Origin: Candidatus Heimdallarchaeum endolithica
GTDB taxonomy: Archaea > Asgardarchaeota > Heimdallarchaeia > Heimdallarchaeales > Heimdallarchaeaceae
Assembly (NCBI GenBank): GCA_021513715.1
Contig: CP084167.1
Location: 1,344,001 to 1,408,000, forward strand
Length of the DNA stretch: 64,000 nt
Direction of reading: 5' to 3'
Shown here: piece after piece, positions 9,204 through 31,472 of the stretch
Position numbering within the stretch: position 1 is the stretch's first letter
Layout: the number at the start of each line of letters is the position of its first letter
The notes under the pieces: model-generated
What the model was told of the DNA's origin: nothing
Databases searched by the model: none
Seen by the model: the letters and a program-made list of their open reading frames with translations, nothing else
Program-made: the position numbers and the translations under genes

Positions 9204-9580
9204 CATAAGATACTTTTTATGTAAAAAACTAAATTTTTAGTTTGTGGGGATATTAGGCCAATAACAACCAGAACACATTTGCATTAATAAAGAATTCACG
9301 ATATTGGGGAGTGTCACAACTTTTCCGCTGTCTTTATACATTCAATTCTCATTTATCTAGTGTCTTGAGCTAGATGCTTAAAGACGTAGGTTTCATTCCT
9401 ACGACACCCGGTCTTCCCTGTGGGAGTTATGAGTGCCCGGGATCAGGAGATGAACCCCTTAGAGAACTTAATTAAGACTGTGTCTTTCATGTTCTCTTAA
9501 GCCAGTCTTCACAACTTTCGCTAAGTTTGTTGATTGGTTGGGTAGAGTCCTGAAGAAATTACGTAAAATTTCAACTCATA
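9204..9580. mobile_element. Non-coding structured mobile element without inverted repeats (CATA at both ends)
   Basis: GC-richer than its flanks and contains several hairpins. CATA occurs at 9204-9207 and 9577-9580. Removing the element restores GAT-ATG-TAA plus a T-tract for the gene at 9571-10227. Bases 9488-9580 recur inverted at 31193-31285. Confidence 0.75.
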
Positions 9581-10227
9581 TCTTCAACATCTAATAGAAA
9601 GACAGCAATAATATTAACAATCAGAACTATTTTTTGTGTTAAAGGCACTGAATAGTCTGGAATAGAGACCCCTACACGATCAAGGATAAATGTTAGTATA
9701 TGTAGAATCACTACTGCAAAGACAATAAAAACGAAAACTACATCAAAGCTTATATGTATCTTTCCTCTGTGCTTATCTTCTTTTCTCATTCTAAAGAATC
9801 TAAGAGCTTGACAATCAAAATCTAATCCCCCAAAACTTATTACAAAAGTAAAAGCCCCGATATAATGAAGGAAGTACAGACTAGAATGATCATAAGGGAT
9901 AGCTATTCCTGCTGCACCAATTGAGAGAATTAGTGTCCATGTAGCTTTTCTAAATCGATAAGTAAGCTCTTCTGTGACCAAGTAATCGATAAATATCGAG
10001 AATGAAATAACAGAAATAAGACTAAAACCTATAGTCATTATCAAAGAAGAGATACTATTTGAAATACCTGTTTCACTATTGATTCCTCCAAGATTGCTTA
10101 TTGCCTCGTTAAAGAAATCATAAGGTTCAGGATAGAAAAACCATGCTAAACCAATAGTAACAATAATTACTATGGCTATAGCCCAAATCAACCAACGAAC
10201 TATTTTTTGCTTATTCATAGAATTCAT
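9571..10227 (-). CDS. Multi-pass membrane protein (DUF998-like)
   Basis: About 6 TM helices, AISNLGG motif, LHYIGAF. The stop codon lies inside the inserted element. Confidence 0.7.
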   Translation of the reverse strand: MNSMNKQKIVRWLIWAIAIVIIVTIGLAWFFYPEPYDFFNEAISNLGGINSETGISNSISSLIMTIGFSLISVISFSIFIDYLVTEELTYRFRKATWTLILSIGAAGIAIPYDHSSLYFLHYIGAFTFVISFGGLDFDCQALRFFRMRKEDKHRGKIHISFDVVFVFIVFAVVILHILTFILDRVGVSIPDYSVPLTQKIVLIVNIIAVFLLDVEDMS

Positions 10228-14122: not shown

Positions 14123-15137
14123 TGTATACTCCACTCACATTGGTAACAAATAAATAGAAGTGGGTTACGTGGGTAAGTGATTAAATATGAATAAGACCGA
14201 ACGTAACCTGGAGAAACTAAGAAAAATTGTAGTTAAAAAAGCTTTGGATGGAGAGAAGATAAAAGAGATAGCTCACAAGTATATGGTGAGTAGGAAGTTT
14301 GTGTATAAGTGGTTGAAGAGGTTCAGAGAGAACCCTGAAGGAGAATGGTGGAAAGATAGATCCTCCAGACCAAAAACTATACACAGGAAAGTGGATGAGG
14401 AGTTAAAAGAGAGGATAAGGGAGTTAAGAATAAAACAAGGAATGAATGTGGAGAAGATAGCTTATTTGTTGAAGAGAGAAGGAAAAGCACTCTCTCAGAC
14501 GACAGTGACGAAAGTAATAAAAGAGTTAGGTCTTCCTTTATGGGTCAATAGAAAAAAGAGGAAGAGACCTCGATACAAGAGTTTTGAACGTCAAAAACCT
14601 AACGAACTCTGGCAAATAGATGTGAAAGGACCATTCTGGGTAGAAGAACAGGGACAACATCTCCATCTCATAACCTTGATAGACGACCACTCACGATTCT
14701 GTCTGGGAGCTAAATTCCACCCTTTTGCACCAAAAAAAGAGCAGATAATAAATCTACTAGAGGAAGCAATAAAAGAGTACGGTTACCCCGAGTCTATCCT
14801 CACGGACAATGGAGCACTCTTCTCTTCCGTTAGAGGAGGAACAAGTACCTTCTCCCGTTGGTGTCAAACAGAAGGAATAAAACACATCAGAGCTAGAGTT
14901 TTTCACCCCGAAACATGTGGAAAAGTAGAAAGACTACATGGGACCCAACAATCATCCGTGAGATGGAAAGATTAGGTCTAAAATACTGCAACGCAGATCT
15001 CTCCTACTACCGCTCTTACTACAATTTTAGTCGTCCTCACCAATCTCTTAACTTCCTCACCCCAGGAGAAAGATTTATGAATCACCCCTATGTTTCTCTA
15101 GTACCCAAAAGTGTAACCCAAGTCTATTGAGTAAACA
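14123..15137 (+). mobile_element. IS481-family insertion sequence
   Basis: TGT...ACA ends with imperfect 26-bp inverted repeats. Flanked by the 16-bp direct repeat CTTATCTTTTTTAGAC (14107-14122 and 15138-15153). Confidence 0.92.
14187..15130 (+). pseudogene. IS481 transposase, frameshifted near 14945
   Basis: HTH plus rve core (WQID, IDDHSR, TDNG, GKVERLHGT). The C-terminus (YNFSRPHQSL..LTP) continues in another frame. Confidence 0.88.
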
Positions 15138-27223: not shown

Positions 27224-30200
27224 TCACCTTTTTTTCTTGTGATCTGGGCAAACAAAAACCTCTTCTGTTTTAAATAATCCTTTTTTGGTCACTTTGATCG
27301 CGTGTTTGGAACAAAGAACTTTTTCACAGACATCGCAACGAACAATATCATTATCGCACACTACGTTGTTGCAGAAAGCACATTGTTCTACATGTTCTGT
27401 TGATACAACTTCCTTACATACAGAACAAACTACAGCATGTTTATTACAGATTACATCTCCACTAATTGAGCAATGTATAGTATGATTTGCACATAATGTT
27501 CTTCCACAAACTTCACAATCATTTGACACTGATACTAATTGCATTTTAGGAGTTTTCTTTTCATAGCAAGAATCACACAAGATGCTTATACTTGTTCCTA
27601 ATGTTGATTCAGCTATTCCTCTAATAAGCAATTCATGTCCTTTTTCATTTACAATATTAATTTCTGCGATGGAAACGGGAATATATAATATTGCAGCATA
27701 GACATCTTGGATTTCATCCTGGTTAGGAATACTAAATGATTTTTTCTTAACTAATTTATCGAGGTCATCGAGTACCTCAACTTTTGTTTGAGATTTTATT
27801 TTTCTATCTAGATCTTTAACAATTTCCACATCTTTTTCTACTTCTGCCGTATAATTCTTTATTACTTGAGGGCCATATTTTAGAGTCTCCACTGCTTTTT
27901 TGTAACGTTTTACATCTGCATCTCTTTTGTATTTGTATTTATTCATCACTATTGGTTTTAATGTTGCGTAAATACTCTTTGCCTCCTCTATTTGTGCTTG
28001 AAACTTTCTTACTTTATCTCTTTTTTCGATCATTTTTGTGAAATATTCATCTCTTTGCTTAGTTAACTGACTAATCCATGACTCAATTTTTTCTTTATAT
28101 TTTTCCTCTATTTTCACCAATGAATCTTCAATATCACGCTTCCATTCATCTTCGTACATGCTTTTATCCATCCACAGTATGTCTTGGAATGATTCTAGAA
28201 TAGTTCTTGGTTTTCTTTGAACTTCTATAGTTTTGATATTCGCTGATGGTGGTGCTATCAAGCTTCCAAGATTTTTGAGGGGGAGTATAGAAAGAAGTTC
28301 TTCGAAAACATCTTCTGCTTGAAAAGGTATACTCTCTAATCCCCAAATTTTATCTTTTGAATCAAATTCTAATTTGTCTACTAGTGGAAAAATTCTTTTT
28401 ATTGGGAAATCTAAAATAATTTCTTCTTTTACTACTTCTTCACCTACCTTAACTTCTATTTCTCTTTTAGCATTTATATTAAAGTCAAGTAGCAAAAATG
28501 GAACATAAGCTAATTGAAGATAATTTGTTCCTAAATAACTAAACTTTTTATCACCGAAAAATTTAGATAAAAGTTCTTTTAAATCGATTTTATCGTATTT
28601 AAGGTATTGTTTTTTGATTGTTTTGATAGATTTACTAAGATCTATTTTCTTAAGCTTATGTTTTTTTTCATAATCTATCTCTTGTTCAGTGAAGTCACCA
28701 GGGGTAATTTCTGTTCCTATATCAAGGGTTTCAGAAGAGACATCTGGAAAGTCATCAAGTTCCTGCAATTTTACTTCTGTATCTAAAAGACTTTCAACCT
28801 CTGAGAACTCTTGTAACTTAGACATCTCTTTTTCGATATCGTCTAGACTTAGTTCTTTTTCAATATCAGAAAAGTCCATACTGTCAATATCGTAGCTATA
28901 TCCGTCTACTTCTTTACAAAGAGAAGGAGGTGGATTTTTATAAAGTTTGGATACATCATCATCAGACAAAGCTTTGTGCACTGAGTACAACCACCTAGTT
29001 TTAAAACGAACAGGTTTTGGGTAATTGTCAGGAGAGAGTAAATAAAATTCTCCTGGTTCAAAATTTGGGAGGTCATCAAGGATAAATCTTGCAGTTGGGT
29101 GAGATTGAATCATTTTTTCTACTGTTCTTAAGTCCTGTGGAGCCATAAAACGTCCAAAAAAGAAAGTAGAAACTTGGCCAAAAGCTTTGTAGTCTACATC
29201 ACTTATATTTTGTGTTGCAACTAACATTGAAACTCCATATTTCCTACCTTGTTTAAATAAAAGTTGCAACCATTTTTTTGTAGGAGGATTACGGGGATAT
29301 GGTGGGATTAAACCTGCTAATTCGTCAATATAAAAGATCAGTTGTGGTTCATGTGAGGGGTTTGAGAGCATATAGGTATAAAGTCTTTGAGAGATGGTAG
29401 AAATATAAAGGTTCTTCAATTTTTGTGTGTTTAGAGTATTAAGATAGATAATTGATATCCTGCATTTTCCTTCTTGAGAAGCATTTTTCAATGTTTGAAT
29501 GTTTAATTTTGGTCCTAAATTAAAGACTAAAGACTGCGCACCTACTGTTAAAAATTTAATATTCTTGACTAAAGTTTCTTTTTCTTTCTTTTCAAGGAGA
29601 GAACGATAAGATTCTGATAAATATGCTTCATCAGTGTTAATAAGATCCATTAACATCTTAAAGTCTTGTACCAAAATATTTCTTCTCATAAATTCTTCAA
29701 AAAGAGCTGTAAGATAAGCCTTTACTGCTTTTCCCTTATTTGAACTTAACTTATAGCCCAACACATCAACTAGATTAGTTGCCATTCCGTCAATAGCTAG
29801 TATTTTTTCTTCTCTATCAAGTTGTGTTGGGGGAGGAATTAATGGATTTATTGAAAGAGGAATACCCTTTTCTGATGCAGGAGTAAAAATCACTACTTCA
29901 ATTTTTTCTTTATACTCCTCGTAGAAGTCTTTATTTACACCATATTTTTTAAGAGCTTCCCATTCAGCAACCATTGAAAGACTGCTAATATCACCTTGGG
30001 GGTCTATAATTATAGCAGGAATATTATTTCTAATAGCTTCTTCAATCACGACCTTACAGGCTACTGTTTTTCCACTCCCTGATTGACCAAAAATAGCAAC
30101 ATGTTTTTTCAAAGCTTTAGTTGGGAGAGTAACATCTTCACCTGTTTCTTTACTTTTTCCTAAAGATAATATCGGTGCACTTTTCGCTTCATTCATATTC

Positions 30201-30241
30201 TTCAATATCAATGAGTGATTGTTATCCTTAAACCTTTCCAA
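27224..30241 (-). CDS. HerA/FtsK-family ATPase with coiled coil and C-terminal Zn-finger repeats
   Basis: GQSGSGKT, IIDPQGD, FYIDE, KQGRKYGV and ATQN, then repeated CxxC...CxxH units. Confidence 0.85.
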   Translation of the reverse strand: MERFKDNNHSLILKNMNEAKSAPILSLGKSKETGEDVTLPTKALKKHVAIFGQSGSGKTVACKVVIEEAIRNNIPAIIIDPQGDISSLSMVAEWEALKKYGVNKDFYEEYKEKIEVVIFTPASEKGIPLSINPLIPPPTQLDREEKILAIDGMATNLVDVLGYKLSSNKGKAVKAYLTALFEEFMRRNILVQDFKMLMDLINTDEAYLSESYRSLLEKKEKETLVKNIKFLTVGAQSLVFNLGPKLNIQTLKNASQEGKCRISIIYLNTLNTQKLKNLYISTISQRLYTYMLSNPSHEPQLIFYIDELAGLIPPYPRNPPTKKWLQLLFKQGRKYGVSMLVATQNISDVDYKAFGQVSTFFFGRFMAPQDLRTVEKMIQSHPTARFILDDLPNFEPGEFYLLSPDNYPKPVRFKTRWLYSVHKALSDDDVSKLYKNPPPSLCKEVDGYSYDIDSMDFSDIEKELSLDDIEKEMSKLQEFSEVESLLDTEVKLQELDDFPDVSSETLDIGTEITPGDFTEQEIDYEKKHKLKKIDLSKSIKTIKKQYLKYDKIDLKELLSKFFGDKKFSYLGTNYLQLAYVPFLLLDFNINAKREIEVKVGEEVVKEEIILDFPIKRIFPLVDKLEFDSKDKIWGLESIPFQAEDVFEELLSILPLKNLGSLIAPPSANIKTIEVQRKPRTILESFQDILWMDKSMYEDEWKRDIEDSLVKIEEKYKEKIESWISQLTKQRDEYFTKMIEKRDKVRKFQAQIEEAKSIYATLKPIVMNKYKYKRDADVKRYKKAVETLKYGPQVIKNYTAEVEKDVEIVKDLDRKIKSQTKVEVLDDLDKLVKKKSFSIPNQDEIQDVYAAILYIPVSIAEINIVNEKGHELLIRGIAESTLGTSISILCDSCYEKKTPKMQLVSVSNDCEVCGRTLCANHTIHCSISGDVICNKHAVVCSVCKEVVSTEHVEQCAFCNNVVCDNDIVRCDVCEKVLCSKHAIKVTKKGLFKTEEVFVCPDHKKKR

Positions 30242-30314
30242 AGAGTAAACATAGATATTCTAGTTCAAAACTAGCTGACAATTAAATAAAAAATTGGAAA
30301 TACAAGAAAAAAAA

Positions 30315-31119: not shown

Positions 31120-31425
31120 ATGAGCGAAAAAAAAATTGTTTTAACAGGTTTTGAACCCTTTGGCGGATCTAAAGTAAACCCTACTGCTAAATTATGAGTT
31201 GAAATTTTACTTAATTTCTTCAGGACTCTCCCCAACCAATCAACAAACTTAGCGAAAGTTGTGAAGACTGGCTTAAGAGAACATGTCCCTTCTTTACCAG
31301 AACAAGTATTAGAAAAAAGGCTTCCTTCAATGTCATTCGAATTAATTGAAAAAGGAATTAAAGTAGCTATTAAAACTATTATTATGGAATTAAAAAATGT
31401 AGAGAATGAAAATTTAATAAAATAA
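31120..31425 (+). pseudogene. pcp: Pyrrolidone-carboxylate peptidase pseudogene (not in ORF track)
   Basis: N-terminus MSEKKIVLTGFEPFGGSKVNPT and C-terminus HVPSLPEQV..LPSMS remain. The middle is replaced by a 93-bp element fragment. Confidence 0.9.
31193..31285. mobile_element. Partial second copy of the 9204-9580 element
   Basis: 91/93 identical to the reverse complement of 9488-9580. Confidence 0.92.
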
Positions 31426-31472
31426 TCTTTATTGCCATTATTATTATCATAGAGTATTCTTAAGATGTATAC

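Follow-up and report, generated by a model that had tools for sequence, protein, structure and literature searches.

The window analysed here, a 64,000-nucleotide stretch of the single 3,326,783-bp contig of Candidatus Heimdallarchaeum endolithica (genome G000), carries a protein-free mobile element of 375 bp. Comparison with its relatives makes it very probable that this mini-element is an internal-deletion derivative of a clade of tnpB-only transposons of the Heimdallarchaeaceae, in which tnpB is gone and both ends, a TATA box and the omegaRNA scaffold remain. With this content (ends, TATA box, omegaRNA) it is a PATE/MITE-like element. The original prediction had taken it for a bridge-RNA-only element of the IS110 family, a reading that is now largely refuted. 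Its broader claim of a non-autonomous element with a structured RNA, a short core and precise excision, moved in trans, is supported, and the alternative that it had named, an IS607/IS605-type TnpB derivative, is the reading that the data support.

Copies of the mini-element and their empty sites

A search of the H. endolithica genome led to the recovery of 18 full-length copies, 15 of them at 92–100% identity and three more diverged, together with one left half and six right-end fragments. The sister genome (G001, Ca. Heimdallarchaeum aukensis PM71) gave 12 matches and vent metagenomes gave 10. Both Heimdallarchaeum genomes are closed (3.32 and 3.08 Mbp, PMC8813620); abundant repeats and 11 transposase families are reported there, and the passages of that paper that were searched do not describe the mini-element. 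Some copies at separate sites are one base apart, and movement must therefore have been recent. As had been predicted, the block is non-coding (longest ORF, 34 aa) and richer in GC than the genome (37% vs 31%). It has no match in Rfam and no viral match was found; a housekeeping RNA, expected as a single syntenic copy with an Rfam match, is ruled out by the missing Rfam match, the multiple copies and the empty site in the sister genome. An unrelated repeat of about 110 bp, also in near-identical copies, was noticed near 314230-314340 of G000 and at about 20 other sites.

The locus in the window is empty in H. aukensis (...aattaCATAtcttc), where the host gene end reads back to ...EDM-stop, the clean end that excision was expected to restore. 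Seven further empty sites, of miniatures and of tnpB elements, contain a single AT each.

Features of the mini-element and of its host site. Coordinates are those of the window.
9205..9579, + strand: complete mini-element of 375 bp, bounded by the two AT cores, one of which is the target's (from copy boundaries and single-AT empty sites)
9205..9224, + strand: left end, AT core and subterminal arm (here TTTTTATGTAA, consensus TTTTTTACGTAA), with the geometry of tnpB-only left ends
9230..9325, + strand: spacer, poorly conserved (39–49% identity to diverged copies)
9333..9340, + strand: archaeal TATA-like box, putative promoter (consensus TTTATATA), upstream of the RNA with constant spacing in 15 of 15 copies examined
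9360..9579, + strand: TnpB omegaRNA scaffold, whose 5' start corresponds to the terminal tnpB codons (VLSQW) of the parent clade (from covariance model, conservation and fold)
9429..9434, + strand: ATGAGT, the loop strand of the pseudoknot, within the CCCGG/CCGGG stem module; pairs with the right-end ACTCAT
9555..9579, + strand: right end, terminal hairpin with arm TTACGTAAAA at 9559-9568, ACTCAT at 9574-9579 and AT core at 9578-9579
9580..9599, + strand: predicted guide segment, host flank read through, whose expected counterpart in the empty allele follows a ...CAT motif (from TnpB biology; PMC10711439, bioRxiv 2023.03.14.532601)
9571..10227, − strand: host membrane-protein gene, whose last codon is the insertion point; its end changes from DM-stop to DMS-stop

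Boundaries, core and inverted arms

The element extends from 9205 to 9579, one base less on either side than first proposed. CATA is indeed present at both ends of this copy, but the repeated core is AT: the seven empty sites hold one AT, the base to its left is mostly C with G possible, and in 4 of 16 copies the two ends disagree at the fourth base. To the right of the AT, G was counted 40 times, A 17, T 4 and C 3 in a set of 64 right-end pattern matches that includes a few chance ones, and targets have only ~C-AT-(G) in common. The description of the ends as lacking terminal inverted repeats was misleading, since the two halves of the consensus circle junction mirror each other around AT (positions 1-4 and 11-20; arms TTTTACGTAA); it is the left arm of this particular copy that is worn. 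The joined ends would read ...CAACTC-AT-GAGATAC.... An AT at both junctions with a single AT in the empty site corresponds to the dinucleotide arrangement of the IS607 family, whose members show a 2-bp core, subterminal imperfect inverted repeats, phased motifs and excision as circles (PMC6188088; bioRxiv 2023.11.20.567912).

At 24 junction sites, the bases following the left and the right AT tended to be identical (Fisher p 0.03), which may reflect either a short heteroduplex that extends past the core or mutation linked to CATG.

The scaffold is homologous to the 3' ends of tnpB elements

Conservation was found to be concentrated in the 3' 220 nt, which retain 83–86% identity in diverged copies vs 39–49% for the spacer, in which a tnpB remnant was sought and none was recognisable. 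The scaffold folds with a z score of -3.2. The predicted hairpin at 9385-9403 was confirmed, as were the stems of two stem modules (9407-9441 and 9461-9497); the TGT triloop said to be common to both is a feature of this copy only, the first loop being TTT in 13 of 16 copies. The selective conservation of the putative promoter and of the scaffold supports their continued use.

A covariance model built from 15 mini-element copies alone matched the 3' non-coding ends of tnpB in sister genera over positions 1-220 (best match 52.5 bits, E 1.3e-13). These matches lie directly at the tnpB 3' end and begin at the codons of the conserved terminal VLSQW. The resident TnpB families A and B were matched weakly, the IS607 tnpA loci included were not matched, and among 151 genomes of the phylum the matches are confined to the Heimdallarchaeaceae. 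Long motifs are also common to the mini-element and to the 3' non-coding regions of more distant TnpB homologues, and family B shares the terminal AACTCAT. Both in this 3' homology to tnpB elements and in stopping at the right end, the scaffold is as expected of an omegaRNA.

The ends tell the same story. A left-end scan located the left end of the mini-element before a 483-aa TnpB, and at least two 353-bp elements of genome G002 have the parent left end and promoter joined straight to the omegaRNA start, beside full tnpB copies. The H. endolithica genome itself contains at least four tnpB-only families built alike, each around an AT core with inverted arms ~9-20 bp away from the centre, but with arm sequences that differ. 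In the 31 genomes of the family, nothing but tnpB or miniatures was found inside matching ends, and a search for any further gene enclosed by symmetric AT ends returned just tnpB elements and apparent chance pairs. A close-parent tnpB, with the omegaRNA of this exact mini-element, was found in neither Heimdallarchaeum genome, the nearest RNA matches being in other genera. Parent TnpBs have kept D, an alternative E and D; the alternative RuvC-II glutamate lies six residues before CxxC and is a feature seen in IS607 TnpBs, though not exclusive to them (PMC10711439).

Two related observations were made. A second protein-free miniature of ~355 bp, derived from TnpB family C, is present in six copies (G000 699973-700327 and five more; L182), with right end AAGTTGAT and the same AT core. 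In a sister tnpB clade (L114-L123), a long conserved structured region lies upstream of tnpB, at the left end (GGTTCCTCT/AGAGGAACC hairpin).

The conserved part of the internal match is a computed pseudoknot

The first loop contains TTATGAGT at 9427-9434, as described in the original prediction, and for one copy this 8-nt match to the element's own joined ends is above chance (1.2% of shuffles). As a match to the junction it does not hold, being exact in only 4 of 18 copies: the conserved part is 6 nt long and lies entirely within the right end, and the two additional bases are not tied to the left end in tnpB elements. In contrast to the 8-nt match, the pairing of ATGAGT with ACTCAT, the terminal hexamer of the right end, is maintained in the copies (97.8% of cells paired), and TnpB family A shows a compensatory change to ATGATT/AATCAT at the same distance (144–151 nt; 140–151 nt for the two pairings taken together). 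Covariation within the mini-element copies is weak, with two pairs showing two-sided change, and was not taken as independent proof. A conserved pseudoknot between the pre-guide bases and an upstream loop is required in TnpB RNAs and for IS607 TnpB activity (PMC10711439), and the same arrangement, bases before the guide with an internal loop, was found here by computation. As read from the alignments, the conserved 6-nt match is the omegaRNA pseudoknot. The pairing being made in cis, a donor-binding loop is therefore unnecessary to explain the match.

Remnants and rearrangements

A second insertion had been proposed in pcp. It is present, but as a 93-bp right-end fragment that starts at the internal CATG of the element; pcp (31121-31426) is a pseudogene which has lost ~424 bp relative to H. 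aukensis.

9488..9491, + strand: internal CATG, breakpoint of at least four independent 93-bp right-end remnants
31193..31285, − strand: 93-bp right-end remnant in pcp, replacing ~424 bp of the gene

At one site, a CATG-start remnant is present without loss of flank. We infer that such flank-to-internal joints, which involve no element end, are more easily explained by conservative exchange at a symmetric AT than by a DDE reaction. In two metagenome contigs (L021:3834-3974 and L025:1777-2155), the segment bounded by the internal ATGAGT (ACTCATA when inverted) and the right end is in reverse orientation, for which an assembly artefact is possible; together with the CATG joints, this inversion would be compatible with conservative exchange at a symmetric AT. 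In H. aukensis (L046:703-855), a family C tnpB element was found at the internal CTCAT of a mini-element whose left half is lost.

Predicted use of the RNA in trans

Taking as given the copy number, the boundaries, the AT core, the empty sites, the omegaRNA homology, the pseudoknot pairing and the end geometry of tnpB-only elements, a mode of action can be proposed. Transcription from the TATA box through the right end would produce the scaffold followed by a guide copied from the flank. TnpB made elsewhere could load this RNA and cut empty alleles that carry the CAT motif and the guide sequence, which would favour retention of the element by recombination repair; by analogy with characterised TnpBs, the RNA would thus guide TnpB in trans against the empty allele. 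Protein-free elements which keep omegaRNAs have been described for TnpB transposons (bioRxiv 2023.03.14.532601). The element itself would move as a circle, by conservative recombination at AT with a preference for C-AT-G, catalysed in trans.

Candidate movers

The movement looks like conservative recombination at AT of the IS607 kind. However, no recombinase gene was found inside any of the ~60 tnpB elements inspected, and IS607 TnpA (MerR-HTH serine; NF033518) was below the cut-off in both closed genomes. A serine-type enzyme accounts for about half of the probability that we assign, a DDE transposase for a minor share and a Y1 transposase for a much smaller one, other enzymes taking the rest.

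The IS607 TnpA of relatives was rejected as the mover, as these elements have other ends (ACCG-type) and no covariance-model match. In genus g4, IS607 tnpA elements starting with ACCG (L051, L052, L053, L054, L057, L068) carry as second gene an unusually long TnpB-like protein.

In the H. endolithica genome, two stand-alone serine recombinases of 240–249 aa (G000 316728-317450 and 405348-406097; L028:1213-1935 and L029:1201-1950) were the sole serine candidates found. Proteins of this kind occur in 29 of 31 family genomes, in 17 of 17 with the tnpB clade and in 0 of 52 others of the class, a co-distribution that is one lineage-level coincidence. One of the genes was examined and has a fixed chromosomal context; one follows a cluster of small GTPase genes. 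A dif-like site with the geometry of the junction was not found on the chromosome, and the idea of a host recombinase is therefore weaker; neither did the neighbourhoods of distant TnpB relatives and of serine recombinases reveal a pairing of both. IMEX elements borrow Xer. That an Asgard TnpB family and its guide-RNA-only miniatures, without a transposase of their own, would in a comparable manner borrow a conserved chromosomal small serine recombinase (two paralogues) is a tentative proposal, to which we give a low probability.

A DDE transposase moving the same omegaRNA mini-element, with the arms as TIRs and AT as a 2-bp duplication, would account for the symmetric ends, the AT on both sides and the preference for a palindromic CATG, and DDE-linked TnpBs with inverted ends, common to solo TnpBs, are known (PMC10691335). 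This MITE-like explanation is nonetheless unlikely: the arms differ among co-resident families, and joints between flank and internal CATG without an element end are not readily given by a DDE reaction. Resident multi-copy DDE families have unrelated TIRs and longer duplications, and none with the ends of the mini-element was found among the multi-copy families compared; IS5-like (345-aa family), IS481, IS6 and ISH3-like elements were rejected on their ends. The window also contains, at 14187-15130, one copy of an IS481-family transposase, with an apparent frameshift close to the 3' end; there are ~24 copies in the genome.

Even less probable is mobilisation by a Y1 HUH transposase, which would make the element a PATE of the IS200/IS605 type, with CAT as its left target motif and TCAT as its right terminal motif. 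The sole Y1 gene of H. endolithica belongs to a canonical IS605 element and is broken by a mini-element copy (G000 925509-925884; L087), which splits this tnpA after its second codon. Y1 was found neither in H. aukensis nor in 14 of the 17 genomes with the tnpB clade, and no left-end hairpin is conserved in relatives, so that neither an available Y1 TnpA nor subterminal hairpins at both ends could be recognised. In favour of Y1 are its linkage to most TnpBs, the existence of omegaRNA-carrying PATEs (bioRxiv 2023.03.14.532601), a hairpin 7 nt before the right end and the precise empty sites.

Other enzymes were also considered. The one tyrosine recombinase gene of the genome (G000 29372-30277) showed no link to the mini-element; strong matches to Cas1-type integrases resemble ordinary CRISPR Cas1 and one weak match is unrelated, while a very divergent aCas1 would escape this search. 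A search for IS91 Y2 gave no match, yet its control was likewise without a match.

The bridge-RNA reading

In the IS110/IS1111 reading, the two stem modules would be the target- and donor-binding loops of a bridge RNA, and a DEDD recombinase would act in trans. A short core, precise excision and, in this copy, the 8-nt junction match had suggested it, and the subterminal inverted arms, which resemble those of the IS1111 group, could be added in its favour. We consider it almost certainly wrong. Neither the DEDD (PF01548) nor the Tnp20 (PF02371) recombinase domain is present in the H. endolithica or H. aukensis genome. Three of the 31 genomes of the family contain PF01548, but these three lack the related tnpB clade, and in the 17 genomes that have the clade PF01548 was detected in 0; because many genomes of relatives are incomplete, the weight of this absence rests on the two closed ones. 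The covariation between loops and ends or targets that a bridge RNA should show was looked for in the copies and the loops were found to track neither. No donor loop covaries with both sides of the circle junction, only the right-end 6-mer being conserved, and the loop bases of the first module do not follow the left end. Nor does any loop specify ~11-14 nt of target: the loops of the second module vary freely and its internal loop collapses in diverged copies. The bridge RNA was rejected on these grounds and on the homology of the RNA to tnpB omegaRNAs.

Significance and comparison with known systems

Protein-free carriers of omegaRNA are already known and the element itself is a modest finding. 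Its analysis removes a false bridge-RNA candidate and adds a new omegaRNA family, without Rfam match, for compact Heimdall TnpBs, with clear ends, a core and a predicted CAT target motif. A symmetric junction centred on AT is common to dozens of recently active elements, tnpB-only and RNA-only, and the closed genomes that contain them yielded neither an IS607 or IS110 transposase nor an intact Y1 transposase. If a borrowed serine recombinase moved these elements, the miniatures would be mobile guide cassettes programming TnpB in trans.

Compared with the IS110/IS1111 bridge-RNA elements (IS621; PMC11208160), the mini-element has neither a DEDD recombinase nor programmable target and donor loops, and its RNA is a TnpB omegaRNA homologue; the short core, scarless excision and a structured RNA are alike. 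It resembles the DDE-associated and solo TnpB elements (PMC10691335) in its inverted ends, in a TnpB 3' end within ~250 bp of the right end and in mobilisation in trans, but no DDE gene with matching ends was found and the rearrangements look conservative.

Likeness is more extensive to the IS607 family (IS607, IS1535, ISC1926, ISXfa1, CboIStron; PMC6188088, PMC10711439, bioRxiv 2023.11.20.567912), with a 2-bp core at both ends that involves no true duplication of the target, subterminal repeats both inverted and phased, a TnpB with the alternative RuvC-II glutamate and a pseudoknotted right-end RNA. The differences are an AT core vs the usual GG, arms equidistant from both ends, and the absence of a MerR-serine TnpA from every element and from either closed genome, so that the mini-element works like an IS607 miniature for which no IS607 transposase was found. 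The PATE-like derivatives of ISGst (bioRxiv 2023.03.14.532601) are of the IS200/IS605 type, with Y1 and hairpin ends, whereas here the junction is symmetric about AT and no Y1 accompanies the family; in both cases, the ends and an omegaRNA are kept without any protein, and transposase and TnpB act in trans.
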